A DNA stretch of 64,000 nucleotides from Leptospira sp. (GCA_034439575.1 JAWXAQ010000030.1:128001-192000), one strand, 5' to 3'; counted from the stretch's first letter, positions 12,045-32,800 are shown. Numbers and translations: made by a program. Notes: generated by a model from the letters alone, not told the origin.

Positions 12045-14474
12045 CTAGCGAGTCTCATTGCCAGTTGTAAAATTCCATTTCTTTTTCCAAACTCTCTTAC
12101 CTCTACGAATGCCTTCCGATTCTACAGTATATGTTTCGTTCGGTTCTAAAGGATCTCGACTCATAATCCAAATTTCAGTTTCACCACCAATTCCATATTT
12201 TCCATCAGAAGGCTGAATCAGCCAATGTGGAATTGTTTTACCAGAACTATTTTGAAGAATTGCCTTAAAATCTTTTATGTCATAAGAGCGATCTGAATAG
12301 AATTTAATTACGATCGGATATCCCACAATTTTATCTTCGTCATCTAACGGAGTCGTGTTGGGAATTTCATTAATCATAGTTAATGGAACATTCTGTTGGT
12401 TTTCATAAGGATACACTTTTACATCAGGAGCTGTGTGCTCCATCATATTCAAATATTGGTGATTTAAACCTACGACTCGCATTACGGCTTTTTGTGATTT
12501 TTGATTTTCAGATTCCGCATATCCAAATCCCACTTTAAGTAAACCAAGGCCTGTGATTGGCCTTCGATGTAAAATAGTTTGGTTCCAAGTATCCACGGAT
12601 TCTTCACCTTTGTCGTTGTTAAATGAAATTGTTTCACCTTGATACCCATATCTAAATTCCTTTTTTGAACCTTCAATTGTATACAGGGGAAGAATGGGAT
12701 TTTGATTGTGCGCACCCAAACCCTTTGTGGTTGGATGGTTTTCATTGGCAACGAGATATCTCGCATGAGCTTCTGAAGCTAAGGTCAGACGAACGTCCAT
12801 TTCTAATGGTGGTGCTCCGTAATCAACTCTAAGTCGATTGAGTTTCTCAAATGTTTTTCGATATAATACATGTATTCTCTCCTTAGGAGGAGATAGATTC
12901 CAATAAATGATAACTGTATTTGGTAACAATTGTTTGAGTTTACTTAGAGCCTCTGGGTTTAGAGGATTTCCATCGATATGTATTGATTTTAATGATTTTA
13001 GTCCTTTCATAGATTCAGGAAAATTTGTAATCTTATTATTACGTAGACTCAAATATTCCAGACTTTTTAATTTCCCAAGTTCATCAGGAACTATGGTTAG
13101 GTGATTATCACTTAAATCCAACAAATTCAAATTGTTTAAATTTCCAATGGATTTCGGAAGGGAATTTAATTCATTACCGCCTAGAGAAAGCTCATTTAAA
13201 CTTTTAAGGCTACCAATAGTATCTGGTATTTTTTGGATTTTATTTCCAAAAAGATTTAGCAATTTTAATTTTTTTAATCCTTGGATGTCAGTTGGGATAG
13301 TTGTGAGTTGATTGAAACTCAGATCCAGTTCTTGGAGATTATTCATTTTACTGATTGTCGATGGAAGGATGGTAAGTTTATTAAATGTTAAATATAAACC
13401 TTTTAAATAAGATAAATATCCAATATTTTCGGGAAGGGATTCGATTTGATTAAAACTCAATTCCAAAACCTTCAGATTTTTTAATGCACCGATTTCTTTG
13501 GGCAATGATTTAAGCGAATTTTGTCTAAGGTGAAGTATTTCTAGTTCTGTTAGGTGTTTGATCTCGGGCGATATACTTTCTATTTTATTGTTCCATAAAT
13601 AAAAATGAGTCAGGCCTTTCAATCCTTTGATATCAGAAGGGATTTCATTAATTTGATTCGAATGCGCCCAAAGTTTTTTCAATGAGCTAAGTTCATTTAG
13701 ATCATCAAATAGCGACTCAATTTTGTTATGTGCAATATTAAGTGAACTCAATTTCTTTAAACTATTAATTACAGTTGGCCATTCTGAAAAATGGTTGTCC
13801 ATTAAATTGAGATCATTAATATTTTCTAAATTCGCAAATGAATCAGGTAATTCATTCAATTCATTGGTTTCGAAATTAAGACCTTCTAGAGATTTCAAGT
13901 TTTCAAAACTTTTTGGCAATTCCCGAATTTTATTATTAGTAGCACTCAACCATTTAAGTTGCGTTAAATATGTTATAGAGGCCGGGAAACTCTCAAATTC
14001 ATTTTCATTCAATGAAATTCCTTCCAGATTTTTCAATTGATTGATACTTTCAGGAAGGAACGTTAGACGGTTTGAAGTCAATCTAAGTTCGGAGAGATTT
14101 TTTAAGGCACCCAATTCGGAAGGTAGTTCCCTTAAACCAGAACTTATCTCCATTCGCTCAATGAAATCAAGACTTTGGATGCTAGGTGTAAGATTTTCAA
14201 AGTCACCATATAACTCAAGCCGTTTGAGGTTTTTAAGAGTTTCCCAATCCTTAGGAACATCCGTGGATTTTGTGTATATAGTAAGTCTTTCTAAGTTTTT
14301 GAACTTGGTGAGACCTTTGGGTAGCTCATCTAGATTCTTACTAAGTGATCCTAATGTTAGTCGAGACCTTTGACTTGATTCACTTTGAATTTGTTGTTCA
14401 ATTGATTGTCCCGAAATCGAAACAAAAGTGAAAAAAACTAAACTCGACGTAAGGATAAAATTTCTAAATGACAT
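12045..14474 (-). CDS. Secreted leucine-rich-repeat protein with C-terminal CAP (SCP) domain
   Basis: Signal peptide; about 20 tandem 23-aa LxxLxLxxNxLxxLP repeats; then LNRLR..APPL..LTLASEAHARYL..GETIS..W..HR..VGFG. Confidence 0.88.
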   Translation of the reverse strand: MSFRNFILTSSLVFFTFVSISGQSIEQQIQSESSQRSRLTLGSLSKNLDELPKGLTKFKNLERLTIYTKSTDVPKDWETLKNLKRLELYGDFENLTPSIQSLDFIERMEISSGLRELPSELGALKNLSELRLTSNRLTFLPESINQLKNLEGISLNENEFESFPASITYLTQLKWLSATNNKIRELPKSFENLKSLEGLNFETNELNELPDSFANLENINDLNLMDNHFSEWPTVINSLKKLSSLNIAHNKIESLFDDLNELSSLKKLWAHSNQINEIPSDIKGLKGLTHFYLWNNKIESISPEIKHLTELEILHLRQNSLKSLPKEIGALKNLKVLELSFNQIESLPENIGYLSYLKGLYLTFNKLTILPSTISKMNNLQELDLSFNQLTTIPTDIQGLKKLKLLNLFGNKIQKIPDTIGSLKSLNELSLGGNELNSLPKSIGNLNNLNLLDLSDNHLTIVPDELGKLKSLEYLSLRNNKITNFPESMKGLKSLKSIHIDGNPLNPEALSKLKQLLPNTVIIYWNLSPPKERIHVLYRKTFEKLNRLRVDYGAPPLEMDVRLTLASEAHARYLVANENHPTTKGLGAHNQNPILPLYTIEGSKKEFRYGYQGETISFNNDKGEESVDTWNQTILHRRPITGLGLLKVGFGYAESENQKSQKAVMRVVGLNHQYLNMMEHTAPDVKVYPYENQQNVPLTMINEIPNTTPLDDEDKIVGYPIVIKFYSDRSYDIKDFKAILQNSSGKTIPHWLIQPSDGKYGIGGETEIWIMSRDPLEPNETYTVESEGIRRGKRVWKKKWNFTTGNETR

Positions 14475-15108
14475 TGGTATATCTCCTACAATCGCCTTCG
14501 TTTAAAATTAATATGATAGCTCGAAAATTATACTGTCACTAGTAAATGTGCAACTCTAATATTTATTCTGATGATAAACTATACATAGAAAATTATGTTA
14601 TGAAATTTAATCTTCCTGATCGTTACTATTCATAAAAATCGAATCAAATGAATACTGCTGGGATAAGAATAGATTTAGATTTTCTGTAACTTTAAAATAG
14701 GCTCTATTTGTTAATATTTAAGGCAAAGTTAAATCTAAAAAGCACATATAGCAAAAGATAGAAATTCATGCACCAAAAATTATTCAAGAGTTTCAAACTA
14801 TCTAATGTATTTTTTTTGCTTTTTACAATTGTGACACATTTAATAATATAACGACTGTTCCTAGGCTTGATCAATTACAAATCTCTCATCATTTCAAATC
14901 ATTAAAATTTCCGAACATGGTATTAAAAATTTGGATTTATCTTACAGCACTACCCGAAAAGAGACTTATACTCAAACAGATTCTATTGAAGGCATTTACA
15001 AATACAAAAACCAATATTCCACTCTTCCTACACCATATGTAAATTTAGTAAATTAGAATTATTTAAAAAGTAAATGTAATCTTTAAAAGTTGGATGAAGT
15101 TTGATTAA

Positions 15109-15147
15109 ATTAAAATTAGTAGGCCCCTTTGATGTGTTATATGGATG
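15109..15147 (-). other. Inverted, extended-spacer dif-like site at the distal end of the toxin cassette array
   Basis: Minus strand: CATCCATATAA, 17-nt spacer, CTAATTTTAAT. The second arm matches the arm at 22119-22129 (CTAAGTTTAAT) at 10 of 11 positions. Confidence 0.6.
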
Positions 15148-15181
15148 AAACTTTATCGAAAGAACCGATCCCGCTCTCCCT
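15131..15181. repeat. Repeat X, copy 1 (51 bp)
   Basis: 49/51 identical to 19106-19156, same orientation. Confidence 0.95.
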
Positions 15182-15208
15182 AAGACGAGGGCACTCTGTC
15201 GAGCAATA

Positions 15209-15321
15209 GCAAACCTCGTTCCCATCTCCCTTCCCTCTCACCTCCGTGTTCGAAGGAAGGACTCCGACATCCATGTCTCCGTTACCGATGGAAACAAGGT
15301 TTGCTGGCCGAAGAAAGATCG
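15209..15321. repeat. Repeat Y, copy 1 (113-bp GC-rich hairpin element)
   Basis: Near-identical to 18955-19069; ends GCAAACCTCGTTCCCATC and GATGGAAACAAGGTTTGC are imperfectly complementary. Confidence 0.95.
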
Positions 15322-15654
15322 TGTAACGATATCAATGATGGGCTCTCACATTCTGCAAAAGTATTATAAATTACGCTCTCATCCCGTTCTTTGTGGGTTC
15401 ATAACCTACTTACATCTTTTGAAACAGCCGCCTAAATAAAGATAACATTCGTTTTTCTGTGAAGTCTCTCTGCTTCTGGCGAAGGATTAGTTATGTACGA
15501 AAATCATTTCTTTTTGAAAATTAGTTCTATTCTATTTGTAAAATCGTGAACTAACTAACAATTTGTAGACTAGCAACGAACAATAAGTTTACTGTGTTGT
15601 GAAAATTTCTGTCTTAACGTACATAGCTTCTACGATTGTAGTGTTTGCGAGATT

Positions 15655-16218
15655 TCATGTTAAATTATTTAAAATCCCGATCGTAAAATTTATAATTTCA
15701 TTCCATTCTGTATCTGAAAAATTTGGAGTGTATATTAAGTTTATAGTAACTCGAAATGTTTTTTTATACTTTTTGTGGTAATAAAATGCAATCACCTTTC
15801 CCCCGATTACTTCACTTGGTCCATATAAAATTTCCATTTTTTCTGTTTTATAACGGATAAATTTTTTCCATCGATTGACGGATGTTGGTTCAAATTTAAA
15901 GTCTTTTAATTTTGATTCGGTGACAATTTCTTCAAATCTCTTTAATGAATTAGGGATTATAGATACATCAATTAACAAAGAAAAACATTCATTCTCTTGC
16001 AGGCAATCTGCTTTAAAATAAGTTATCGGATATTTTAATTCCTGTTGAACAGAATCAATTCTTTCTGTTACTTTTGGAACATAAAGTCTCATAGATTCAA
16101 CTTTTTCTTCTCTTACAGGATAAAAAGCGATGCCTCGATAACTTTTCGTTAAATCTAATTTCTGAGCATTTAGAAGAGTAAATGAAAGCAGACACAACAA
16201 AAGAACTAGTCTTATCAT
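15655..16218 (-). CDS. Small secreted hypothetical protein, candidate second or orphan immunity protein
   Basis: Sec signal MIRLVLLLCLLSFTLLNA; last gene of the cassette array; function inferred from context only. Confidence 0.55.
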   Translation of the reverse strand: MIRLVLLLCLLSFTLLNAQKLDLTKSYRGIAFYPVREEKVESMRLYVPKVTERIDSVQQELKYPITYFKADCLQENECFSLLIDVSIIPNSLKRFEEIVTESKLKDFKFEPTSVNRWKKFIRYKTEKMEILYGPSEVIGGKVIAFYYHKKYKKTFRVTINLIYTPNFSDTEWNEIINFTIGILNNLT

Positions 16219-16256
16219 TTCGTCACCTAATGATAGTTTGCATCTAATTTGAGCTA

Positions 16257-17024
16257 CTACGGCTTTTCATAACTCGTTGGATCATAAATATCTGCATCAA
16301 TTTTCCGTTTGTATTTTGTTTCATAAGCAGATACAAATTTTTCCATCTGACCCTCTGAAACTTTTTTCCATCCTTGAAACATAACCATCTTTAAAGAAGG
16401 CAGGTTCAACATACAATCTAGGCTTTTTTTAGTTAGGTTGGTCATATCATCCATGCGAAGGAAAGTAAGGTTTTTTGCATTTTCTGTGAATTTGCACATG
16501 CCTTCATCTGTGATTTTTGCACCAGGCCCAAGAATAAATCGATCTAATTTTAATACGTGCGAAAAACATTCAACATCATTGTCTAATAGAGGGACGTGGC
16601 TGTAATCTATTTTTACCTTAGGTGCTTTTAGTCCTTTTGCAATCTCACATATCTGTTTGTGGTTTAGTTCGCTTCCTCTTATAAAAAGTGTCGTTAAATT
16701 AGAATTCTTGCATGCGCTCATTTCCTGGTCACTGAAATCTGGCAAGGCACCCCAAGATATATCTAAGAAATTTAATTTCTTTATCGAACATATGGTTACA
16801 AGGTCTTCCGGTAAGTAAATTCCCTTTCCAGTCATTTCAATTGCAGGGATTTTTTCTTTCGTTGAAGCATCGAAAGTCTCCATATAATATCGATAGGACC
16901 GAGAAGTGAGATTTTTGATCAAATCTTCATCCGACAGGCTTGCAATCCGTGAAGTCGCCGTCGAACAAGCATGAAGGACGAAAGACATTAGAACGAAAGA
17001 TAATTTCTTCAAAGAGTATTTCAT
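16257..17024 (-). CDS. Lipoprotein with LRR-like repeats, candidate immunity protein for the orphan tip
   Basis: Lipobox VLHAC; repeats such as LNFLDIS, LTTLFIRG, LTFLRMDD, ITDEGM; starts 2 bp after the stop of 17027-19021. Confidence 0.7.
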   Translation of the reverse strand: MKYSLKKLSFVLMSFVLHACSTATSRIASLSDEDLIKNLTSRSYRYYMETFDASTKEKIPAIEMTGKGIYLPEDLVTICSIKKLNFLDISWGALPDFSDQEMSACKNSNLTTLFIRGSELNHKQICEIAKGLKAPKVKIDYSHVPLLDNDVECFSHVLKLDRFILGPGAKITDEGMCKFTENAKNLTFLRMDDMTNLTKKSLDCMLNLPSLKMVMFQGWKKVSEGQMEKFVSAYETKYKRKIDADIYDPTSYEKP

Positions 17025-17026
17025 TC

Positions 17027-19021
17027 TTATTTCCTTGCTATATAATCAAAATTATAGGGCGCATATGTTGCATATTTGTTTAAATCGTTCTTAGGATTCC
17101 CCAATACTGACCCACTCACATTCTCTGGATCAAATTCCGTTCCATTCACAGTTGTCGATTGTGACCCATCTACCACTGTGTAAGTATAACGTCCATCCTT
17201 CATCGGATTCCTTTGTAAACTGATTGTATGACCAGTTCCACTACCATCATCTTTCACTCGCAATGTGATCGCTAATGGTTGTTCTTTCTTTAGAAAATCA
17301 GCAATGACTTGATATCCTTCTGCGCGTGCCGAAGCAACTGAAGCAGGATTGGATCTGTCGCCTTGTGGAAGTGGCGGATGAGATTTGTCATCATTCCATC
17401 GCTGGAAAGAACCATTGCCATTCATATAGGAATTGATTACCGCGCTTGTGCCACCTTGAGGTCCATTCAATTCCATGTTCTCAGGTTTCATAAAACCATT
17501 GTCAGTAATGTCCTTGATGAACTGTGGAAAATCTGGAATGGCATCACCTAAATTTCGTTTTAACATTCCCCAGTTAGCTGCTGCTACACACCACCTCTCA
17601 CGTAAGTAATCTGGCATACTTTTAGAATCTATGCCAGCCTTTACTGCTTCGGCAGTGGCATATGAAAGAGTTTCTGGCTTTCCCCATTGTTGGAGGGAAC
17701 CTTTTGCCTGGTTCGCATAATAATTTGAGTCTTGATGAAAAACTTCCCCAATTCTAAAATTCCCAGTGGCTTCATTTACATAAACATTCAATGCTAATGG
17801 TTTCGTAGTTGCAGGGAGAACTTCGATCACTCCATTCTTTGCATTGAAGAGCTTCTTCATTGCGTCAGAGATTACACCAGGTTCTTTTTTGAGTCCACCA
17901 GATTGGATCAGATCTTCTCTTGTATTACCTACTGTTTTTATAACATCGTCCATGGATTTACCATATTTCTTTTCAAAGGATGCTTGGGCTGCTTTCATTG
18001 CATCCGATTTTTTTGTCAAATCCGCCTGCATTTCTTTAGATATAGGCATATTATTGGATACAGACTCTATGCTTTTTGAAAGAGCATTCTTAAAATCAGC
18101 TTCTGCTTTTACATATTTATGAACTGCGGATTTTACAGAAGGATCCATTTCTTGGCTTAACATCGGATTATTTAGAATGTCTATTGCCACTTCCATTCTT
18201 TGCGTTTTCGATAATGATAAATCTTGTGCTTTTTTAAATATTAAGCGCTCCGATTCTGCCTTTTTAATAGCATCCATTTCCGTTTTCGTAATTTTAATCA
18301 TTTCATTCTGAGTTATTGTTAATTCATTATTATACTTTATCAAAGTGTTACTTAGATATTGAATTAATTGGGTTTCATTTTTTGGAACGAATCCTGGATC
18401 TTTTTGATGTAAATGGTTATATTCACCAACACCTAAAACCACTCTTTCAATCTGACCTCGAACTGCCTCGATATCCAGTTTCGCTTGTGAGGCTTTATCA
18501 TTCAATTCAATGTATTTCGGATCTAATTTTAACTCAGCAATTTTATTCTTAGCCTGAGTAATTCTCTCGTTTATATTTTGTTCTTGTTCGCTAATGATGC
18601 TTGTCCTGTCTGCATGCATGTTTTCAAAAGCCATCAAAGATTTTGTCACCGTATCTTGCATTGATCCCATATAAGCCCTTGCTGTATCAGTGGAACTAAC
18701 GACTGTCCGTTTTGGTAAATCGGGAACATTGATAATTACCTGTCCGCCATTATCAACTTTTACGTATACTCCTTTCTTATCTGAAAGCGAAAGAATTTTT
18801 GATTCCTCAATCAACTTTAATCTCTCGGAATCTGGCATTGCATTGATTAAATCAATACCTTCATTAGGTGTATTCGAAAATTTTGGTTCGATCAGTATGC
18901 ATTTAGGAATCTGGCCTTCCGTATAACGTGAATTATGTTTATTACCCAGCCCAGGCAAACGCTCGTTCCCATCTCCCTTCCCTCTCACCTCCGTGTTCGA
19001 AGGAAGGACTCCGACATCCAT
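17027..19021 (-). CDS. Orphan polymorphic-toxin C-terminal cassette (coiled-coil region plus papain-like domain); real cassette content starts at the site near 18926
   Basis: No signal peptide; first ~22 codons are read through repeat Y; NKHNSRYTEGQI aligns with IKLRSYYTEDQI of the giant protein; WCVAAA..GHTISL..VVDG near the C-terminus. Confidence 0.75.
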   Translation of the reverse strand: MDVGVLPSNTEVRGKGDGNERLPGLGNKHNSRYTEGQIPKCILIEPKFSNTPNEGIDLINAMPDSERLKLIEESKILSLSDKKGVYVKVDNGGQVIINVPDLPKRTVVSSTDTARAYMGSMQDTVTKSLMAFENMHADRTSIISEQEQNINERITQAKNKIAELKLDPKYIELNDKASQAKLDIEAVRGQIERVVLGVGEYNHLHQKDPGFVPKNETQLIQYLSNTLIKYNNELTITQNEMIKITKTEMDAIKKAESERLIFKKAQDLSLSKTQRMEVAIDILNNPMLSQEMDPSVKSAVHKYVKAEADFKNALSKSIESVSNNMPISKEMQADLTKKSDAMKAAQASFEKKYGKSMDDVIKTVGNTREDLIQSGGLKKEPGVISDAMKKLFNAKNGVIEVLPATTKPLALNVYVNEATGNFRIGEVFHQDSNYYANQAKGSLQQWGKPETLSYATAEAVKAGIDSKSMPDYLRERWCVAAANWGMLKRNLGDAIPDFPQFIKDITDNGFMKPENMELNGPQGGTSAVINSYMNGNGSFQRWNDDKSHPPLPQGDRSNPASVASARAEGYQVIADFLKKEQPLAITLRVKDDGSGTGHTISLQRNPMKDGRYTYTVVDGSQSTTVNGTEFDPENVSGSVLGNPKNDLNKYATYAPYNFDYIARK
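18916..18943 (+). other. dif-like tyrosine recombinase site (11-6-11)
   Basis: CTTCCGTATAA-CGTGAA-TTATGTTTATT; resembles the XerC arm (..ATAA), 6-bp spacer and XerD arm (E. coli TTATGTTAAAT). Confidence 0.8.
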
Positions 19022-19069
19022 GTCTCCGTTACTGATGGAAACAAGGTTTGCTCAGCCGAAGAAAGATCG
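18955..19069. repeat. Repeat Y, copy 2
   Basis: Differs from 15209-15321 by two 1-nt insertions and about two substitutions; forms the inner stem between the two inverted dif-like sites. Confidence 0.95.
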
Positions 19070-19071
19070 AA

Positions 19072-19122
19072 AATAAACATCTCTTTCTTTCCGTTGGGCA
19101 CCTCGGATGTGTTATACGGATG
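19072..19122 (-). other. Inverted dif-like partner site with extended (29-nt) spacer
   Basis: AATAAACAT (19072-19080) is the reverse complement of ATGTTTATT (18935-18943); GTTATACGGA (19111-19120) is the reverse complement of TCCGTATAAC (18918-18927). Confidence 0.75.
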
Positions 19123-19156
19123 AAACTTTATCGAAAGACCCGATCCCGCTCTCCCT
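19106..19156. repeat. Repeat X, copy 2
   Basis: 49/51 identical to 15131-15181; lies just after the stop of the first immunity candidate. Confidence 0.95.
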
Positions 19157-19191
19157 CGACGGTAACGCTCGGTCGATCGGTGGTGCAAGAC

Positions 19192-19833
19192 TCATTTATT
19201 TTTTTCTTCCTTTTCTGGACCAACAATATCATAGGAAGAATTATTTTTTTGTATTTCGGCTATTTCTGCTACCGTCGTCACACATTCTTCATAAGTTGTA
19301 TAGTCAATCCCTGCTCTTCCATCGTCTAGAACTGTATCTGAATTTAAGGCATAAAACTCAAATTCGCGAAAGACAGGAGTTGGATCTTTGTAATTACCAC
19401 TGTAAATCATTTTGAATCGTAATATTTTGGTCTCGCTTTCATTGGTTAAATAAAAAAAGTCTCCTTTCTTTGACAAAAATTTCAAATGAATATCGAATTT
19501 GCGTCCAGTGGAACGAAAGCGAAACAAATTCTTATCGGGTATAAATTCACCACAAGATGTAGCATAAATAGGCCGATATTCCCAAGCATTGGAAGCTTTT
19601 TTTCGAAGATCATCCTCAATATATTTCAAAAATGTATCATCTGGGTCTAAAATAACGACTCCTACCAACTCAGGATAGTCCATCAAAGTAAACTTTGGAT
19701 CAGTATATACCTTTATATCTACTATCGAGTTAGAAACTGATTCTGTCTTAACTTTTTCGTCAACTTTTTTGCACGCAAAAGGCGGAAGACTCAAAAATAA
19801 TATTAGAATATAATAATTTAGCTTATTTGTCAT
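19192..19833 (-). CDS. Lipoprotein, candidate cognate immunity protein of the full-length toxin
   Basis: Likely start MTNKLNYYILILFLSLPPFAC (ATG 19833), overlapping the toxin stop by 11 bp; the ORF track starts at 19902. Confidence 0.72.
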   Translation of the reverse strand: MTNKLNYYILILFLSLPPFACKKVDEKVKTESVSNSIVDIKVYTDPKFTLMDYPELVGVVILDPDDTFLKYIEDDLRKKASNAWEYRPIYATSCGEFIPDKNLFRFRSTGRKFDIHLKFLSKKGDFFYLTNESETKILRFKMIYSGNYKDPTPVFREFEFYALNSDTVLDDGRAGIDYTTYEECVTTVAEIAEIQKNNSSYDIVGPEKEEKNK

Positions 19834-22800
19834 AATAAATCCCATAGACTGGGTGATCCTTGAAATTAACTGGCAGAAAATCACCGCTTTCTCTTTCTCC
19901 ATTATTGTTCATATCATACCACTTTCCATCTGTTCCTTTGATGATCAAATTGTAATGATTGCCACCTGGACGATCTTTCCTATCTGTATCTCGATAAACT
20001 TGAACAACTTCACCAGGTTTTCGATCTGCTAAAATGTTGTTTACTTCGACTGTTGTAAATGGTCTTGATACACCAACAATCCCATTGTCAGTAAAATCAA
20101 AATTTGGGGAATTATTTCCCGTTTTCGTTCCAGTAAGATCGAGCCTACTTTCAACTCGGGTTGTATAACCGGCAAGATTATTTTGATCCATAACTGGTTT
20201 AGGTGGACTAGAACTATCTGCTCCGATATCTCCTATCCTAAACTTTGTGATCAGATATTCAGAAAAACTAGCAGACGTTTTGTTGTTTGCCACTGCAAGA
20301 GTATAATTAGCATAAACTTTACATAATTCCGCTGTTGTATTCTTTGCAATCGCGTCAGTCGATGCTGCCTTGTCGCCGAATATATAATTCTTGATAAATT
20401 CGAAGTTTTTACTCCCCGATGGATCTCCTGCAAAAGTAAAATTATCTTTTCCTTGATCCCTGATCGTGGCAAATACAAGTTCCACCATTTTTGACATCCC
20501 ACCATTCTTACTCTGATTGACAATTGTTGGGTCAAGTAACTTATTCATAGCGTTGATTCTGTCTTGTCCTTCCAGAGAAGCAAAACTCCGTCCTTCCAAC
20601 TCTGGCATATTTGCTCGAAGAAACTCGTCTGGTGTTTGATTTGCTCGTTCAATTCCATCAAGTTGAGCCTTTGTCAGACCCTCCACCGTTCTCATATTTT
20701 CTGCTGTATCAGAAAGTGTTTTTTGATACGGTTCCGCGACCTCTGGAATTCTGTCGAATTGGGCCTGTAAATTAGACGAAGAAACCGATATGGGCTCACC
20801 CAATTTGACAGAGTTCAATTTTTCTAATGGTCCATTAAAAGTCTGCGTGGTCGGATCAAAAAATTTCTGATGCAAGAAAGCATTCATCTCGGTTTTCAAT
20901 TTTCCAAAGGAAGTAACCTGAGCAGAAAGTTCATCATTTCGTGTGCGTACTTCTTTAATAATTTGTTTTTCAAGCTGCTGACTTTCAAGATTCGCTTTTT
21001 TATAGTCAACCGATTGATTCTGTAAATCCTTGATCTGTCTCACTAGAGTCATTTCCTCAGGACTTGAACCTTTAATTTGTGAAAGAATCTTCACGAAATC
21101 AGAGTCTTTACTCTTAACATCCAATCTTAAAACTTGTTCTAACAATTTTGGCTTACCATTTAAAAAACCAGATATATTGTTCTCAGACGAATTGCGATTT
21201 AATAACAATTCACTGCTATTTTGCCCACCAAGTTCAAATTTAAGTGTATCAAATGCGTTCTTTGTATCAGTAAGTTTTTGAATCAGCTTTCCTTGCTTGA
21301 CCTCGCTTGGCAATGGCTTAGATAATCTCTCAATGGCGCTCTCTACATTTGATATTTTGTCTCCAAAGTTTGTTTCAAATTCTACCCTATATGCTAATGG
21401 CATAGACTCAGAAATTTTTGAAAATGTATCATGAATTTTTTCTGATGGAGTTTTATTAGGAGTCCCCAATTCCGACGAGCCAAAATACTGAATACCAAGT
21501 GTTGATCTGATGAAACCCCCACCCGAATTGTCTGTCACATAAACCACATTAGGCTCTCCTCCGAGACCAGATGTCTGCCTTACATTATCAAAAATAGCCA
21601 TATCGCTTGCGTTAGGTGTGCGTATACTTGTTTCACCTGTGATTTCATTTAAAACGACTGTTTGCAATCGACCATTTTCATCTTGTCGAATTGCTTTCAA
21701 TGAACCATCTGCTTCACGACCATAAATTATACCTGAATCAGGATCTACCCAGTATCCATCTCGATCGATACCTTCATACATTTTTCGTCTTCGTGTTTCA
21801 ATCGCATCAACAGCTACGTTATTATTTGTTGTATTGTTAGGCGCCGCATTCCCAGCCCCTCTTCCTAGTCCAACGAACGCTAACAAGGCGGCACTTGTCG
21901 TGCCTAAGATTCCCATAGTTGCATCAGCAATCCCATCAGCACTGATCATGCCATCTATATGGTTAAGTGCCAAGCTTCTATCATATTCTGACATTCTATT
22001 GATTTGGTCAGATGTATACTGTCCGCTTTCCACTATTCGATTAGTATCTATGATACGAATGGCATTCTCTCTTGCTATGGGATCCATTCCACGAATTTGG
22101 TCTTCCGTATAATATGATCTAAGTTTAATATCTGCAGCTCTCGCTCTCTCGGCATCCCCCGTCATATCTTGCGCCAAATTGATATTTTGCTCAGCCCAAT
22201 TCATCTCATCATACTGGAAGCCATCTTCTGTCATTGTCGCTAAATTTACACCATGTAACTGTAGTGAGTTCGACAATCCGTTAGTGTCAATGGTAGCATT
22301 ATAGCCAAGTCCCGTAGCACTATCTGTATAGCCTACTGTTCCGGATACTTGCCCTCTATTTGTATCATAGTTCGCTCCAAAATTCCAACCTCGTCTTGGT
22401 CCTTCATTACTTGGATTATAGTTTACCCCTACTGTAGTTGAACCGTTAGTCGTTGAAGAGCCTGTTACTTGAACTCCTTCTATTGACGTATTATAAGACG
22501 CGTTAATGGTTGTATTTCCCCTCTGAGAAAAGGATATACTCGCATTAGTCATATCACCACCGATTCCGATCATACCGCCCCAACCAGCTCGCCTATCGTA
22601 GGTAACTCCAAGACCAAGTGTCGTACCGGATAATATACCGGTTCCGCTGCTGAATGTAAAGTTCCCATTAGCAGTCATCGCTCCTAAAAATCCGTTTGCA
22701 AAGCCTGCAAGCATGCCTTGCGTTCCATTCCGACTACCATCTATCGTCTGTACGGCTCCGTTTAGAATCGCGGCCGTTAATCTAGCACTGCCAGATACAG

Positions 22801-25800
22801 CGTTCATTGTTCCTTGCAATGCAGGGCCAAATGCACCTGCCGCTCCTAATGTTACAGCTGTTGTAACGGTAGTGATCGCAGTTGACCGAACAGCTTCTGC
22901 TCTTGCTTTTTTATCAGCACGACTTTGTTCATAACGACTTACGGTATTCCTTAGAGATGCATTTAATATTTCTTTTTCATCGTCTGTCATACCGACTGAC
23001 AGTGCCTCAACGGCCATCCTTTGACCAAGTTCCTTAGTAAAACCTTTCTTGTCTTTAATGGATGGTGTAGAACTCGTATAACTAGTACCAGGTGCTTTCA
23101 TACCAGATGCTTGATTCATAAAAGCATTTCCTTGTGCCTCGAGTGTACTATCACGAGTAGTTGAGAAAAGAACGCGTGTGGAATCACTAATCATCTCTTG
23201 AATGTCCCTTTCAGGCACTCCAACTGCGACCATTGCTGTTTTCACAATACCTCCTCCTATTCCCATGACTTGAGACATTATATTCATAACCGGATTAGCA
23301 TTGATCGCTTGGCGTGTTTTTTTGGCTTTTTTTGCTCCATAATAATCAGCGATTGCATTTCCTACGACTTCGAGCGGAAGGCCGGTAGATGTTGCTACTG
23401 CTTGTGTTCCAATGGACTGTATGATTGATTGTTCATTCGCCTTAATCGCTGCTAGTTTGTCTTTAGATCGTGTACTGGCATTAATAGTTGCCTCGTATTT
23501 CTTCTCTCCGACCGCTGATTTGTACATTACTGAAGCCATAATACCTCCAGAAGAAAACATTTGTGTAAAGGCGATAGCTGGCGTTAGGATAGCACTGCCA
23601 ATATCCGCCTTCTTAATCTTCCTTTCTTGCACCTTACCTTTCATAAAACTTAGAGCTTGTGCAAGCTGTCCTATCTGGCTTTCATCGGCACCTGTAGCTC
23701 GTGCAAACGCTGTGGCGATATCCATATTGATCTTATCTTCTATCTTGCCTTTGATTGCACCCTTAACTCCCGCCATACCACCGCTAATGTAGGCAATAAT
23801 GAGATCCTTCACAAGTGAATCGTGATTTTCTTGTTCTGTTTTGGCCTTTTGGAATTTCCTTTCGTTAGCGGATTCTACAGAACGAATATCGGCCACAAGA
23901 CTTCCGACGATAGAATTGTCTTTGGCCAATTGTTTAGTATAAAAATTGTTCATCACGGCATTTGCTTGGGCACTAAAATCTTTCCAATCTGCTTGTTCCC
24001 ACACATCGAATAAATCTTTGCCAGTAGGCATAGTAACGGGCGCGACATTGGAAAGTGCTATCGTTCTAGTTTCCGATTGTCGACCACTTAAATATTTTCC
24101 AGAGGCATCTCTACCTTCAATGCGCCCATTGCTAATAACTTTAGTAAGTGTCGCAACTTTGGTTGCTGTATTAAATTTTACTTCGAAATCTTCTCGTAAT
24201 AATCTCCCCCCACCCTCGACACTTACACAATTATGTGGGTTCGCATAACAAGATCCAACTCTTTCTTTTTGTTCCTTGGTGAGTAATTTCTTATCTGCTT
24301 CGGAAAGAATATCTAATTTAATTCTATCTTCTAGATCACCATAGGATCTAACAATCATCCCATCCTGGTATTCATATCCGTCTTTTTTTAACTCATTCAG
24401 AGTCCAGCCATGAACTAAACCAAAGCAGTTAGCATCTTTGCCATGTTCTACTTTACAGGCTGCCATTTGTTTTTCATATCCCTTGGTATCTGTCAGAAGT
24501 TTCAAAGCATGATTCACTTTGGCATCACCCACAAAGTTCCCATTCTCATCAAATCGTCCCACCGCCCGATCTTCCCAGCGGATTCCAAAAGCTTGTCGAT
24601 TTAGCATTGTCCTCTGTTCGGCGATCGCATTCTCTTCGTTTTTAGAATTTACGGATAACAATTGTGAATATTGATAAACACCATTTACGGTTGTTTGCAA
24701 AATTTGAGTTATATCTTTATTACCTATATTGAGGGAAGTATTTACTGTGATTTGCGATTCTGCATTGAAAAGATTCACACCATTCACTGTTTCTGAAATC
24801 AGAGATGTTAGATTTGCAGAAAAAGATGAGGTCACACTCGCTATATCCGTATTAGTTGGAGTAGAATCCTGATATGCTGATTTTAATTTAATCTGTGCTA
24901 TATTTTGGAATTGGTTTGCATCTCTGGTACTGCGAACAGAGACAGATTGTCTCTCTAGGTTATCCCATTCGCTCTGTCCTTGGATAAACTCATCTTGGAT
25001 TTTTGATAGCCATCGCTGTTTTCTCTCATCCAATGCGGCAAGAGCCGTTTCCCTTTCCTGTGTCGCCTGCGTGCGTGTTAAATCAGCTTTAACCTTCCAT
25101 GCTGTATAAAAGTCATTATAATCTTTTACTTGTGATTCCCAAGCTGTCGCCGCTGGGATAAGGTTCATTTCATAATTATTTATCTGATTATTTAGAGAAT
25201 TTTTGATTCCATTCCAATAAGTGGTATGAGCATCTTTATTGGCATCATATACTTCGTAAGCTAGGGCAAAGGTCACATGATCCATTTGGAATGCTGTTGC
25301 AGTAGGACCTCGCAACAAAAAATAGGTCCGATAATCGAATCCATTTTGCCTATCCATATTCATATTACCTTGCTTAACCGCATTGTTATCACATGGCAAT
25401 GGGACTATACATTCCGATCCACCTTTGGCGATACCAGTCCAACCTAAATTATCTCCCACCGCATGTTTATTCGCAAAGGCAGTATCTCGGGTATAAATAT
25501 TATAATATACATTTGTTCCTGTGCGAATCGACTGATCGGAACTTAAATAACGCTGTAATAAAGCTTGTATACCTGCTTGGTTGCCAGTATGCATATAGTG
25601 AAGTAGTTCGATATGATCTCCTACTCCTAATGAATAATTAAAAGGATTATTGTTAAAATCCGCAGCTAGACCCCATGCAAATTCACTAGATATATTTTTC
25701 CAATGTTCATATCCTGCATGATTGATAGTCCCTATCATATTTAAAAGTGAGGAAGGAGCAATGCTTGTCCTATCATTAAATTTATTATAAACTTGATATA

Positions 25801-26797
25801 TTTGAGATTGATAACTCGTATAATTTGAATTTGCTGTCAATCGCTGACTCGTTAAATAAGTATTCAAATTTGTAGCAAGGGTACTTATTGAAAACGATGG
25901 TGAGATCGTAGTTGAATCCACTTCTGTTCTAATTGCATTCACCAATGCTTGTAAGGTGGCCCCTGCTGTATTGATCACACCATTATTATCACGATAGGCA
26001 CATCCGTCTGCCACCGAACATGCTGCGTTCAATTCTACTTGGAAGCCATCAATCATATCTTTAATCGCTCTTTTAACTTCCTTTTTATACTTGTCTATTT
26101 CCGTTAATTGGCTTTGGAAGTTAGTATCCGATCCATCAAGAGAGTTAATCACCTCCGCATAATTTCTTTCAATTTGATCTGCGGCTTGCGTAAAATCATA
26201 ATTCCCCTGAACATAGCGATCGCTATACACAGACTCCCATTCCGATCTCGCTTCCAACATTTGATTTTGCAAGGCAGCTTGATTAACAGTTTCATTAGTC
26301 ACATTTCCTAACAGAGAACTTTGCACGATTAGGCGATCAAAATATACTTCATTCACGCGACCAGTATTCAGCCTTGCTATAAACTCACTTTTGTTTTGTA
26401 ATAAATCTAAATTTGCATTCTGTTCCCAAACATTCAAAGCATCTTCTTTTTGTGAAAATAATGATCTCTCCACGTAATCTTTGTATGCCGCCACATCGTT
26501 AATTGCATCGCTACTAGTAATAGAATCTACATAGTCATAGATTGCATCGTCTACCGATGCTTCCCAGGCTCCTCGAATCAATCCTTGATAGTAAGTTATC
26601 TGCTCAGACCAGGTGGTTAAGGAATTCAAAAAATAACTGTGTCCATAAACTTCGCTCATTAGGTTGGGATCATATTGGCTTATATTCAAATTTAGAACTG
26701 TTGCTTGTGAAAAAATAGATTGGATAAAGAAAAAGACAATGATTACAATCGAAACGATAAAATTTTTTCTGCCAACAAACGATAATTTATCTTTCAA
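19823..26797 (-). CDS. Giant secreted polymorphic-toxin-like protein (2324 aa), resembling Leptospira TIGR04388-type large proteins; papain-like C-terminal domain
   Basis: TTG start after GAGG; Sec signal; long helical N-region; Gly/Ala-rich hydrophobic helices and amphipathic beta segment; C-terminal LCKVYA..GNHYNLI..WYD; followed by an overlapping small lipoprotein and an orphan tip. Family name from recall, not a search. Confidence 0.78.
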   Translation of the reverse strand: MKDKLSFVGRKNFIVSIVIIVFFFIQSIFSQATVLNLNISQYDPNLMSEVYGHSYFLNSLTTWSEQITYYQGLIRGAWEASVDDAIYDYVDSITSSDAINDVAAYKDYVERSLFSQKEDALNVWEQNANLDLLQNKSEFIARLNTGRVNEVYFDRLIVQSSLLGNVTNETVNQAALQNQMLEARSEWESVYSDRYVQGNYDFTQAADQIERNYAEVINSLDGSDTNFQSQLTEIDKYKKEVKRAIKDMIDGFQVELNAACSVADGCAYRDNNGVINTAGATLQALVNAIRTEVDSTTISPSFSISTLATNLNTYLTSQRLTANSNYTSYQSQIYQVYNKFNDRTSIAPSSLLNMIGTINHAGYEHWKNISSEFAWGLAADFNNNPFNYSLGVGDHIELLHYMHTGNQAGIQALLQRYLSSDQSIRTGTNVYYNIYTRDTAFANKHAVGDNLGWTGIAKGGSECIVPLPCDNNAVKQGNMNMDRQNGFDYRTYFLLRGPTATAFQMDHVTFALAYEVYDANKDAHTTYWNGIKNSLNNQINNYEMNLIPAATAWESQVKDYNDFYTAWKVKADLTRTQATQERETALAALDERKQRWLSKIQDEFIQGQSEWDNLERQSVSVRSTRDANQFQNIAQIKLKSAYQDSTPTNTDIASVTSSFSANLTSLISETVNGVNLFNAESQITVNTSLNIGNKDITQILQTTVNGVYQYSQLLSVNSKNEENAIAEQRTMLNRQAFGIRWEDRAVGRFDENGNFVGDAKVNHALKLLTDTKGYEKQMAACKVEHGKDANCFGLVHGWTLNELKKDGYEYQDGMIVRSYGDLEDRIKLDILSEADKKLLTKEQKERVGSCYANPHNCVSVEGGGRLLREDFEVKFNTATKVATLTKVISNGRIEGRDASGKYLSGRQSETRTIALSNVAPVTMPTGKDLFDVWEQADWKDFSAQANAVMNNFYTKQLAKDNSIVGSLVADIRSVESANERKFQKAKTEQENHDSLVKDLIIAYISGGMAGVKGAIKGKIEDKINMDIATAFARATGADESQIGQLAQALSFMKGKVQERKIKKADIGSAILTPAIAFTQMFSSGGIMASVMYKSAVGEKKYEATINASTRSKDKLAAIKANEQSIIQSIGTQAVATSTGLPLEVVGNAIADYYGAKKAKKTRQAINANPVMNIMSQVMGIGGGIVKTAMVAVGVPERDIQEMISDSTRVLFSTTRDSTLEAQGNAFMNQASGMKAPGTSYTSSTPSIKDKKGFTKELGQRMAVEALSVGMTDDEKEILNASLRNTVSRYEQSRADKKARAEAVRSTAITTVTTAVTLGAAGAFGPALQGTMNAVSGSARLTAAILNGAVQTIDGSRNGTQGMLAGFANGFLGAMTANGNFTFSSGTGILSGTTLGLGVTYDRRAGWGGMIGIGGDMTNASISFSQRGNTTINASYNTSIEGVQVTGSSTTNGSTTVGVNYNPSNEGPRRGWNFGANYDTNRGQVSGTVGYTDSATGLGYNATIDTNGLSNSLQLHGVNLATMTEDGFQYDEMNWAEQNINLAQDMTGDAERARAADIKLRSYYTEDQIRGMDPIARENAIRIIDTNRIVESGQYTSDQINRMSEYDRSLALNHIDGMISADGIADATMGILGTTSAALLAFVGLGRGAGNAAPNNTTNNNVAVDAIETRRRKMYEGIDRDGYWVDPDSGIIYGREADGSLKAIRQDENGRLQTVVLNEITGETSIRTPNASDMAIFDNVRQTSGLGGEPNVVYVTDNSGGGFIRSTLGIQYFGSSELGTPNKTPSEKIHDTFSKISESMPLAYRVEFETNFGDKISNVESAIERLSKPLPSEVKQGKLIQKLTDTKNAFDTLKFELGGQNSSELLLNRNSSENNISGFLNGKPKLLEQVLRLDVKSKDSDFVKILSQIKGSSPEEMTLVRQIKDLQNQSVDYKKANLESQQLEKQIIKEVRTRNDELSAQVTSFGKLKTEMNAFLHQKFFDPTTQTFNGPLEKLNSVKLGEPISVSSSNLQAQFDRIPEVAEPYQKTLSDTAENMRTVEGLTKAQLDGIERANQTPDEFLRANMPELEGRSFASLEGQDRINAMNKLLDPTIVNQSKNGGMSKMVELVFATIRDQGKDNFTFAGDPSGSKNFEFIKNYIFGDKAASTDAIAKNTTAELCKVYANYTLAVANNKTSASFSEYLITKFRIGDIGADSSSPPKPVMDQNNLAGYTTRVESRLDLTGTKTGNNSPNFDFTDNGIVGVSRPFTTVEVNNILADRKPGEVVQVYRDTDRKDRPGGNHYNLIIKGTDGKWYDMNNNGERESGDFLPVNFKDHPVYGIYYDK
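22102..22129 (+). other. dif-like recombination site embedded in frame in the giant gene (attB/attI equivalent)
   Basis: CTTCCGTATAA-TATGAT-CTAAGTTTAAT; left arm identical to 18916-18926 and in the same codon phase (Y-T-E). Confidence 0.78.
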
Positions 26798-26946
26798 TAT
26801 ACGTTACCTCTCTTTCCAATGAAACAAAAAATATCTTTATATATTCATTATATATAATTTACTTATTAACATTTCTTGGATTGAAAGGTGATAAAATTTG
26901 GATTTTGGGCCTGAACTTTTCTTTTTTTAGAAAATTTTCTTTATTT

Positions 26947-29865: not shown

Positions 29866-32800
29866 TCAAATTGATATCTTTGAACGAGAATACAAGGGGG
29901 ATGACAAATAACGAAAGAACTGTTGATGTAATGAGCCCAGAAATTACGACAATACCTAGAGGAATTTGAAATTCAGATCCTTTGCTAATGGAAAATATAA
30001 TTGGAAACATACCTAAAATAGTTGTTGTGTTGTTCATAATCACTGGTCGGAAAATTGTAGATGCGGCGGCAAACATTGCTTTTTCGATATCTCCGATTTC
30101 TTTCAAATATAAATTAAAATATTCATAGTATAATGCTGCATTATCTACTACGACGCCCATTAACAAAATAAATCCCATAAATGAACTTATGTTCAAAGAT
30201 TTACCGGTAATAAATAAGGCCGGAAAAGTTCCAATAAATACTAAAGGAACAGTCGTTAACATTAAAAAAGAGGAAATATAAGATTGGCTAAGACCAGCTA
30301 ACAACATGAATATAAGTAATAATGCTAAAGAAAATGCAATGGCCATCTCATTTAAAGACTCAGTCAATTTTTCTTTTTCCGATGAGTCTTTTATTTTAAT
30401 ACCCTCGGGTAATTGAGTCTTATTTAATAAATCCAGAATTTGATTTTTAGAATCTGGGGTCTTTGGATCTATAAAAATTTGAATCGGATTGACTTGGGTG
30501 TTTCCATGCCTTATTATATTTGATCTAATATTTTTTTTCTGAAAAGAGACGAATTGTTCTAGGGGAACATTTTCGCCGAAGGGAGTTACGATGCGAAGAG
30601 ATTTGATTTTTTCAATTGTATCCGAAGAATTTTTCTTCATACCAATGCGAATCGGAAGAGAAATTCCTCCTTCTTTTATTTCTGATACTTTAATTCCTTT
30701 CAAAGCAATTTTTATAAAAGTTGATATATATACATTCGTTAATCCATATTTAGCTAACTTGTATGCATCATATTTAATTTGATATTCAGGTTTCTCCTCT
30801 TCATTTCCTAAAAATATCATTCTGACACCATTGATTTTATAAATTTTGTCCTTCAGATTCTTTGAAAATTCATTTAGAACATTTTCTTCTTCTCCAATGA
30901 TAAAATAGGAAATCTCGGCTGACTTTTCGGAAAGCAATTCTCCTAACATATTTTCTTTAGGTTCTATCAAATAAGTCACTAAATCAGTATTTTTCAATAT
31001 CTCTTTCAATTTGATGGAGAAATTAAAAGAAGAAATTCCTATTTCTTCTTTTAACGAAACTTTTACATTTAATTGGCTAAATTCTTCTGAAGAACTTTTA
31101 TGAATTAAAAAATCTTCTTCTGCTCCCACCATTGTAAGTATGGAATTTATATTCGACTTTATTTCTGGTAATGATTCAATATGTTCTGCATATTTATTTA
31201 ACAACTGTAAACTTGTCCCAGTTGGCAGTCTTATTTTGATATTAATTTCACCAGTATCTATACGCGGAATATATTCTTTTTCGATAAAAAAAAATAGAGT
31301 TAGGCTAGTGAGGAATAGAATCAATATAATCTTTAAAAATAATAATTTATACTCATAAATAAATTTTAATTTCTTTTGATAAATTCTCAGTAATTTCTCT
31401 TCATTGAATATATTAAAAAGTATATTTTTTCGAGCTTTATCATTTCGAAATTTATAAAAATAACTCGTAATAAGAGGAATGAAAGTTAATGAAACAATAA
31501 AACTCAAAGACAATGTGATCACGATTGATAATGCCATTTCACGAAAAATCATACCTAAAGAACTTTTAATAAATCCAATAGGTAAAAATACGATAACGGT
31601 TGTAGCCGTAGCCGCAAATACTGAAGAAAAAACTTCTTGCACTCCATTAGAAATGGATATAAATAAATCTTTTCCGAGCATTCGATGTCTTTCAATTGCA
31701 GATAAAACAACATTACTCGAATCAAATAACATTCCAATCCCTAAAGCTAGACCACCTAAGCTCATCATATTGAAGCCAATATCTATATAATCAAAGATCA
31801 AAAAACTTGGAAGAAGCGTTGCTGGAATAGCTAAAATAAGAACCATTGGACTTTGATAATTTTTTAATATTAATAATAAAGATAAGAAGGCTAAAAATGC
31901 ACCTAGAATAAGACTAAAAAATAATCCACGTAATGAATCAGAAATAAATTTAGCTTCGTCATTTATAATTTCACCATGAATTTCTTTGGAAAATAAATTG
32001 TTTACATTTTTGCAGACTAGTGAAACTTCACGTGACAATTTAATTGTATTTTTTCCAGGTTCTTTATATAAAGATAGAACTACCGCATCCATTCCGTTAT
32101 ATTTTGCTAAGGAATTTCTTTCTTTATATCTTTCGTTTATTTCTGAAAAAGATTCTAATGAAATATAACCATTATTTTCAAAACCCTTTACAATCATTTT
32201 TCCTATATCAAAAACGGAATCATATTCACCAATCATCCGGACAGGGAGTTCTTTATTTCCGAAAGGCAATTGACCTGCTGGATAATTTTTGTTATTCGAA
32301 TTGATTAGAGATTCCAATTCCATCGGTTGAATTCGATAAGCATTCATGCGATCTGGATCAATCTCAACAAAAACTTCCTTTTCGTAACCACCATTGAGTT
32401 CAACGAGAGCGATGCCTTCTATACGCTCAAAATACATTTTAATATATTCGTTCACCCATGATTTTAACTTCTTCGGATCATTCAGTCCTTTAGAATAATA
32501 TATTATTTGAATAAATGGTGTTGCAGTAGGATCAAATTTTGATATCATTGGTTTGGATGCTTCACTAGGTAAAGCATCTCTAATTAAATCCAATTTTTCT
32601 CTAACTTCTAATAAAGAAAACTTCATGTCAGTTTCACTTTTGAACCTCAAGTGAACCTTTGATTTGCCTTCCATAGAATTTGATTCCGTTTTCTCAACAC
32701 CTTGTATAGTTCCTACTAACTGTTGTATAGGCCTAGAAATAATATTATCAATTTCTTCTGGCGAAGCATTTGGAAATGATGTGACGATTAATAACTGAGG

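Follow-up and report, generated by a model that had tools for sequence, protein, structure and literature searches.

A polymorphic-toxin locus of Leptospira with a start-less orphan tip and a structured boundary repeat

Introduction

How does a toxin tip come to lie, without a start of its own, downstream of a giant toxin gene with which it shares a short stretch of in-frame DNA? This question is raised by a 64,000-nucleotide (nt) stretch of Leptospira sp. (GCA_034439575.1, JAWXAQ010000030.1:128001-192000), referred to below as the window, from whose first letter all positions without a contig name are counted. In this window, the giant gene P0001 is followed by an orphan open reading frame (ORF), P0002, and a folded repeat, here called R1, lies between them. 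A sequence-only reading had noticed that the 11-mer CTTCCGTATAA (the arm) occurs in both genes, and had proposed that it belongs to an 11-6-11 XerC/XerD site through which toxin and immunity cassettes enter the coding sequence, much as in an integron. The computational analysis presented here gives a little better than an even chance to another explanation, namely that this is a polymorphic-toxin locus of the TIGR04388 family with a displaced, papain-like orphan tip (tip 2) and its cognate immunity gene, and that the shared DNA consists of old junction codons. The toxin/orphan layout is of a known kind; the structured boundary repeat R1 is new.

A giant toxin gene with a variable tip

P0001 matches the NCBIfam model TIGR04388 with 192.3 bits (cut-off 45) over residues 22-708, and it is organized as a polymorphic toxin: among close homologues, a conserved N-terminal body carries unrelated C-terminal tips (Table 1). 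Specifically, when the genomes of the genus (41 in all) were searched with P0001 residues 1300-1700, about 39 of the 99 matches stopped at residues 1545-1558, that is, 4-16 residues ahead of the arm, and the others extended to about residue 1690. The shared DNA in the giant gene therefore lies at the genus-wide end of the core, and the earlier suggestion that the arm sits at a real boundary between conserved and variable sequence is borne out. In another example, the paralogue on contig C13 of the host genome (G000) is 51% identical to P0001 over residues 655-1551 and then passes into a putative intein-like Hint segment and a putative lipase-like end, both assigned from reading its sequence.

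Beyond the core, the same order follows NWAEQNINLAQD in 16 homologues: two helical linker repeats, a hydrophobic helix, an RRR-E/D motif and the variable tip. In one subfamily (proteins of G011, G012, G017, G026, G029, G033 and G036), the linker is conserved through RRR (residues 1563-1691), and variability starts only past this stretch. P0001 has YTEDQI in its first linker repeat and, as a second copy, YTSDQI in the next. A family linker profile aligns P0001 residues 1502-1666 without interruption across the arm, where the homologous columns of relatives read, for example, YSQEQI or LTDDQI. The family linker is thus contiguous in P0001 at the site, which speaks against the insertion of a cassette at the arm.

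An orphan tip with its own immunity gene

All in-frame starts of P0002 before residue 62 lie inside a dispersed repeat, so the orphan is start-less and 5'-truncated; because the nominal ATG sits inside this repeat, the first 20 residues of P0002 recur at nine other places in the genome. After the arm, P0002 is without the linker and membrane segment that follow the arm in P0001. Homologues of tip 2 are found both as the C-termini of full-length TIGR04388 proteins (2427 aa in G033, 2682 aa in G036) and as members of orphan arrays. In an alignment of the tip-2 domain, C, H and D are invariant, and an alignment-based AlphaFold2 model reached a predicted local distance difference test (pLDDT) score of 87, replacing a poor single-sequence model of the domain (pLDDT 42). 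A Foldseek search with the alignment-based model returned nothing at E<=0.001, and the best weak matches were almost all papain-fold peptidases, including the CdiA-CT structure 8ssm; ESM Atlas scores of 0.84-0.87, with papain-like families among the matches, serve as leads only. Tip 2 is a predicted papain-like toxin module, its putative toxicity and neutralization being judged from fold.

Pairing with an immunity gene is best documented for tip 2. A homologue of P0004 stands directly behind nine of nine P0002-like tips in other genomes, and P0004 is therefore the cognate immunity candidate for this tip. The candidate for tip 1, P0003, is assigned by position; it has no family match, and no homologue of it was found in the fetched loci. 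The part of the earlier description that concerned a giant toxin gene with a variable C-terminal tip, and downstream of it a start-less orphan tip beside its own immunity gene, is thus supported. Separately, in the 2682-aa protein of G036, a lipase-like domain resembling that of the C13 paralogue precedes the tip-2-like module, placing two toxin modules in tandem.

Table 1. Coordinates of the features at the locus and of related sites elsewhere in G000.
Feature	Position	Strand	Description	Basis
P0001, giant gene	19823-26797	-	2324-aa ORF, TIGR04388 "Lepto_longest"	ORF and translation
P0001, conserved core	up to ~residue 1555		core common, C-terminus differs	paralogue and genus homologues
P0001, linker	residues 1563-1691; 21725-22111	-	repeats, predicted membrane helix, RRR motif	alignment of 16 homologues, blastp end points
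P0001, tip 1	residues 1692-2324		C-terminal, after linker	
Block 1	22093-22130	-	38 nt, codons 1556-1568; holds arm 22102-22112; inside conserved family linker	
P0003	19192-19902	-	small lipoprotein-like gene directly after tip 1; candidate immunity gene	position only
Repeat part B, first copy	19090-19165	-	accessory, ~60-75 nt, often accompanies R1; holds CATCCGTATAA	
R1 copy a	18948-19055	-	107-nt three-way junction; holds ATG and first ~24 codons of nominal orphan ORF	cmsearch, 111 bits
Block 2	18907-18944	-	38 nt; holds second arm 18916-18926; starts 3 nt after R1	
P0002, orphan ORF	17027-19021	-	664 aa	ORF and translation
Orphan tip 2	17027-18906	-	P0002 from ~residue 39; helical region, then C-terminal papain-like domain	
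Tip-2 papain-like Cys-His-Asp domain	17030-17824	-	last 265 residues of P0002	
P0004	16257-17024	-	lipoprotein-like; cognate immunity candidate for tip 2	
P0005	15655-16218	-	small secreted-looking protein in orphan unit	sub-threshold Pfam match only
R1 copy b	15202-15308	-	closes orphan unit; 96.5% identical to copy a over 115 nt	125 bits
Repeat part B, second copy	15122-15181	-	downstream of R1 there	
Second TIGR04388 gene (paralogue)	G000 C13:11828-18631	-	cut by contig end; Hint segment, then GHSLGG lipase-like domain	
dif arm pairs, perfect	G000 C22:106491-106518, C16:107629-107656, C13:6735-6762		identical arms, different 6-nt centres	

The shared 11-mer and the 38-nt block

The arm is present exactly at 18916-18926 and 22102-22112 (+ strand), with the flanks quoted for it earlier, and its two copies have the same orientation and codon phase; the peptides at these places are IKLRSYYTEDQI in P0001 and NKHNSRYTEGQI in P0002. 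Allowing up to one mismatch, there are four matches in the window against 1.30 expected, a number reached in 5 of 100 shuffles. The giant gene and the orphan ORF have 18 exact 11-mer positions in common, some of which make up a 15-mer and a 13-mer; when the codons of the orphan were shuffled 300 times, a mean of 9.5 exact 11-mers was still shared with the giant gene, 5.9 of them in frame. An exact shared in-frame 11-mer alone is no evidence, as it is at chance level between two AT-rich genes, and this may serve as a practical warning for similar comparisons.

The arm is, in addition, the core of a longer, 38-nt in-frame block (30 of 38 positions identical), which is the top ungapped match of the orphan head, taken as the 120 nt after R1, against the entire giant gene. 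Its score of 18 was reached in none of 300 shuffles (mean 11.2, sd 1.2, maximum 17.5). Beyond the block, the flanks are unrelated (13/40 and 14/40 identical), in agreement with the earlier remark that no long DNA homology surrounds the arms. Seven of the 13 block residues are identical between the copies, six of these with identical codons. Judged by its sequence, block 2 is read as the probable last 13 codons of a former core/tip junction.

R1, a structured repeat

The element described earlier as a hairpin is a three-way junction of 107 positions and 32 base pairs (fold -54.5 kcal/mol, z -4.15), with a closing stem of 17-18 bp that ends in GCAAAC...GTTTGC. Compensatory changes affect 12 of the 32 pairs within G000 and 23 of 32 across species. 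In the cross-species alignment, which was fitted to the model, 91.4% of cells pair, whereas shuffles give 71.2% (0/500) and slid controls 36-44%. A comparison with Rfam yielded no match, only sub-threshold chance rows. R1 occurs 30 times in G000 and 15-24 times in each of G011, G012, G017 and G036, whereas the remaining 35 genus genomes searched have 0-6 copies; outside the genus R1 is rare. Terminal inverted repeats and 30 dispersed copies are features that R1 has in common with transposable elements of the miniature inverted-repeat type (MITEs) and repetitive extragenic palindromes (REPs). No HUH Y1 transposase was found in G000, and a search for the Y2 type matched no control genome, so its result carries no weight. 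Repeat part B, the frequent companion of R1, holds in its first copy an inverted copy of the arm with one mismatch.

The position of R1 at toxin loci is recurrent. Outside G000, 20 of 114 copies lie within 6 kb of a toxin match, and the single-copy genomes G007, G008, G015 and G025 show a giant gene, one or two small genes, and then R1. All 16 copies in the toxin loci that were fetched point the same way as the toxin genes, and in nine of these 16 the DNA right behind R1 matches an internal part of P0001. The P0001 points that abut the 3' edge of R1 are residues ~1417 (five copies), 937, 999, 1089 and 791; the five ~1417 copies read GGMIG directly behind R1, and WGGMIG is found at P0001 residue 1406. 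At least four or five different truncation points thus abut the R1 3' edge. Since internal P0001 sequence is found right behind R1, a 5'-truncated module after R1 is the rule of the family, and the window, in which block 2 starts 3 nt after R1, conforms to it. The recurrent boundary between units is R1, not the 11-mer, and orphans are 5'-truncated genes that start at the R1 3' edge. This finding speaks against the expectation that each downstream cassette begins with the arm: the arm occurs in none of 68 stored loci from related genomes, whose orphans start elsewhere, right after R1.

In these relatives, orphan heads begin at P0001 residues ~791-1417, and the orphans keep 150-600 codons of conserved head, with which they are able to recombine homologously. 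In the window, the orphan keeps 38 nt at 79% identity. The structure of R1 is conserved and R1 closes units, and recombination at R1 is a suggestion made from sequence. The orientation of R1 relative to neighbouring genes in G000 is unbiased (13 versus 13).

One array in G000 deserves separate description. At C11:40691-47218 (L084:4692-11219), at least five R1 copies, starting at the stop codon of an Xer-like tyrosine recombinase gene, are interspersed with two vapBC-like pairs, additional small ORFs and other families of repeats, and the array runs to the contig end. The recombinase matches NF040815 with 231 bits (cut-off 220) and the integron integrase model TIGR02249 with 162 bits, in two stretches, against a cut-off of 265. 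Orthologues are absent from the R1-rich genomes G011, G012 and G017, and R1 lies inside the fetched flanks of 2 of 12 recombinase loci; a conserved link between this recombinase and R1 is rejected on these two grounds.

Several further properties of R1 were observed. In its apical part (18960-19000 in the window), all copies have a near-invariant purine run with a Shine-Dalgarno-like GGAGG and, further on, an invariant GAGATGG. Likewise, five orphans from G011 and G036 open, right behind R1, with codons (GG-M-IG) that resemble GGAGG followed by ATG. Two subtypes of R1 differ by compensating changes in both inner hairpins, and the G000 copies at C11:44908 and C7:105642 are chimeras of the two, which suggests exchange between copies.

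Strain and population data

The stretch was found in microbial-mat and groundwater metagenome runs. Three of the runs (X5, X8 and X10) contain the same strain as the window, in fragments, and a fourth, X13, contains a diverged strain. The deletion joint 18926/22113 was seen in none of the four (window 14000-27500), whose low-depth contigs are uninformative on rare variants. A metagenome scan with P0002 returned a single locus, L083, which over 21,460 nt does not differ from the window and hence represents no new strain. A search with P0002 against longer proteins gave none, which is weak evidence, and a protein search with P0001 residues 1470-1770 returned only the protein itself and one relative at 44% identity.

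X13 bears directly on the arm. Its contig over 22000-22272 (depth 17.5) has no difference in 22000-22112, and all 14 listed differences (15 were counted) fall in 22113-22193, an 81-nt patch with identical sequence on both sides and a left edge that coincides with the arm. Nine of the 12 changed codons are synonymous, and Y1562 is changed to R, the residue of the orphan. The window's orphan head was considered as a gene-conversion donor for the patch and rejected, as only two adjacent changes (22113-22114) match the orphan. Elsewhere, the X13 gene is a fine mosaic, diverging by 3.5-5% across 20018-20773 and hardly covered across 20774-21721; its loose end at 21722 may represent a different tip or a stretch more than 10% diverged.

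A displaced tip as the favoured explanation

On balance, the two arms are probably homologous leftovers of the same place in two alleles, namely the first linker repeat at the core end, rather than recombinase sites. The anatomy of the locus, its family membership, the tip/immunity pairing, the significance of the block and the place of R1 are shown by the analysis; an order of events, and a mechanism for the joint, we infer along the following lines. A resident gene would have been hit by incoming DNA that carried core, linker, tip 1, P0003 and R1, and this segment would have joined by homology on the core side and through a non-homologous joint at the R1 3' edge. The resident tip 2 and its immunity gene would have been pushed downstream, leaving the block as a remnant of the resident's junction codons. 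The outcome would be the present layout: a giant gene with an expressed tip 1, the probable immunity gene P0003 and R1 closing the unit, and, behind R1, 13 junction codons, tip 2, P0004, P0005 and the second R1. Switching back would require a rare deletion between 38 nt of 79% identity and, because the head is so short, the orphan is probably stranded unless such a short-homology deletion takes place.

Orphans of this kind are known from Rhs loci. In PMC3967940, Rhs orphans are described as displaced pieces in which part of the conserved coding sequence is retained and initiation signals are missing, and a Salmonella rhs orphan recombines through 522 bp at 95% identity. Against this background, five points weigh against a displaced tip in the window. 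The 38-nt head is far shorter than the heads in relatives or in Rhs. The location of the joint, at the edge of R1, is left unexplained by displacement. The family linker profile gives no match to the P0002 head, so the homology of block 2 has to be carried by the DNA match alone. The identity break of X13, which falls exactly at the arm edge 22112/22113, is not predicted by displacement, although its force is tempered by the shortness of the patch and the mosaic nature of the gene. Finally, the metagenome and protein searches turned up no further strain in which tip 2 is joined to the core.

Alternative explanations

Among the alternatives, the one that survives best assigns the mobility to R1, as the active boundary of units made of tip, immunity gene and R1, either as an attC-like folded site used by a tyrosine recombinase or as a hairpin prone to breakage. 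The 3' edge of R1 would be where units end, these would join the giant gene in frame, and the block would be the start of each cassette in this species. The conserved structure of R1, its abundance in G000 and in four other genomes, its proximity to toxin matches, the lone copies right after toxin-immunity genes and the uniform orientation at toxin loci are all in keeping with such a role, as are the several truncation points at its 3' edge, the G000 array with vapBC-like pairs behind a recombinase gene, and the unbiased orientation in G000, which fits a DNA-level element. The mechanism is nonetheless regarded as unlikely. The C11 recombinase scores under the integron-integrase cut-off, it is missing from three R1-rich genomes, few recombinase loci have R1 nearby, and the Y1 search drew a blank. 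Moreover, one founding junction, followed by homologous exchange of heads, could spread the R1/GGMIG arrangement without any site-specific step, and the covariation was measured in a model-fitted alignment. A bolder version, in which R1 is the working boundary of a cassette system specific to this Leptospira clade, with tip-immunity units and toxin-antitoxin pairs cut and joined at its 3' edge, and in which the arm block is an in-frame docking point in the giant gene, as the X13 identity break at 22112/22113 hints, is more doubtful still; if true, it would amount to integron-like gene capture inside a coding sequence, by some recombinase.

Slightly less probable again is a protein-level explanation. 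Polymorphic toxins have demarcation motifs ahead of their tips, such as VENN in CdiA and DPxGL in Rhs, and the motif S-x-Y-T-E-x-Q-I might likewise be kept for processing or release of the tip, with DNA identity as a by-product. The block does stand at the end of the genus-wide core, more than half of its residues agree between the copies, and P0001 has the related YTSDQI one linker repeat downstream. However, the family does not conserve this motif: just 1 of the 68 related loci contains so much as the relaxed pattern Y[ST]x[DGEN]Q[IVL], which there occupies the homologous linker position. Codon sharing at six of the seven identical residues leaves nothing to separate protein constraint from shared ancestry, and X13 has lost the tyrosine (Y1562 to R).

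The proposal that the two 28-mers are dif-like sites of XerC/XerD, or of another tyrosine recombinase, at which cassettes are inserted and excised in frame, was compared with dif sites derived from the genus genomes themselves. Genuine dif sites with the arms ATGCGACATAA / TTATGGGAAGT are present in all 41 genomes. Closed relatives have one per replicon, near mid-chromosome (for example, at 1.78 of 3.72 Mb in G013 and 2.10 of 3.99 Mb in G017), and the three sites in G000 are probably one per replicon as well. The C13 site has the same centre as the third replicon of G017, so the C13 toxin gene is probably on a third replicon. Measured against these arms, the proposed 28-mers agree at 13/22 and 12/22 positions, and 11,126 and 42,070 other 28-mers of the genome do as well. 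Dyad symmetry is 5/11 in the orphan site and 4/11 in the giant-gene site, versus 9/11 in a genus-conserved dif-like site, and between the two copies the spacers agree at 3/6 positions and the second arms at 8/11. Thus, the 28-mers differ from dif sites in arm similarity, in dyad symmetry and in conservation among relatives and strains.

What speaks for Xer recombination is that the copies are in frame and in the same orientation at a module boundary, that the outer half of the genus dif arm is similar to the arm once a 1-nt gap is allowed, and that the host has XerD (371 bits, cut-off 329.6) and an XerC-like gene (323.8, cut-off 335), together with three other tyrosine recombinases. The arithmetic of the proposed deletion is also correct: joining 18926 to 22113 removes 18927-22112 (3186 nt) and fuses P0001 residues 1-1562 in frame to P0002 residues 33-664 (632 aa). 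As predicted, identity breaks exactly at the arm in X13 (22112/22113), but of the 17 positions outside the arm in the intragenic 28-mer, 5 differ in that strain. Together with the weak arms and spacers, the lack of the arm from all related loci, where orphans start elsewhere, the want of any recombinase gene in the window, and a tip 2 without the linker and membrane segment that follow the arm, these findings make an Xer site highly improbable. Pure chance, despite the several in-frame exact 11-mers expected between the two genes, is the least probable account of all, since the 38-nt block exceeds all 300 shuffles, and one of its copies opens the orphan while the other lies at the main gene's core boundary.

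Two other dif-like sequences were encountered. A candidate at C8:187620 was set aside because it is not conserved, being present in 1 of 41 genomes. A different, highly symmetric 28-mer at C16:273284-273311 of G000 is found exactly once in 41 of 41 genus genomes (<=3 mismatches), and in four closed genomes its counterpart is situated some 1.8 kb away from where the second replicon record begins.

Comparison with known systems

Orphan toxin/immunity modules are also carried by contact-dependent inhibition (CDI) and MafB loci. Like Rhs and CdiA loci with orphans, the locus of the window has a conserved carrier, a variable C-terminal tip, an adjacent cognate immunity gene and start-less tip fragments downstream. 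Unlike those systems, its carrier is the Leptospira-specific TIGR04388 protein, to which no secretion route is assigned, and each unit ends in a structured R1 that abuts the next truncated module, an arrangement not found described in the literature search. The contrast with the Salmonella rhs orphan lies in the length of the head, 38 nt here and 522 bp at 95% identity there. In the full-text search, no paper holding the accession TIGR04388 was found, and at the level of titles and abstracts nothing describing R1 or an integron in Leptospira.

There is some resemblance to integrons: promoter-less units stand in a row, each closed by a folded repeat of about 100 nt whose structure is conserved, and one array with toxin-antitoxin-like pairs adjoins a tyrosine recombinase gene. 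Unlike an integron integrase, this recombinase fails the integrase model and is not linked to R1 across genomes and, unlike attC, R1 folds into a three-way junction closed by an 18-bp stem, whose ends depart from the attC core consensus. According to PMC3607928, no spirochaete clade other than Treponema is known to carry integrons. The proposed sites share with dif/XerCD sites their 11-6-11 layout, in a host with XerC and XerD; unlike the dif sites of the genus, they are asymmetric and no better than thousands of other genome positions. With REPs and MITEs, R1 shares short length, dispersal, a mostly intergenic location, terminal inverted repeats and expansion in one clade; it differs in its multi-helix covariation, in its conserved 3' place at one type of operon in single-copy genomes, and in that no Y1 transposase accompanies it in G000.

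In Proteobacteria, orphan tips of polymorphic toxins are a familiar feature, and TIGR04388 loci would mean that saprophytic Leptospira, too, maintain arsenals in which toxin tips are exchangeable and matched by immunity genes. Should R1 be involved in moving cassettes, it would open a new way of capturing genes in frame. As an RNA 3'-end element only, it would still be an undescribed, strongly covarying RNA motif present in 30 copies in one genome.

Neighbouring genes

Upstream of the giant gene are two AcrB-family transporter genes (26947-32932, - strand). A large ORF also precedes the giant gene in G007 (982 aa), G008 (924 aa) and G015 (893 aa). On the other side, the downstream neighbour of the giant gene encodes an 809-aa leucine-rich-repeat protein with a CAP domain (12045-14474, - strand).

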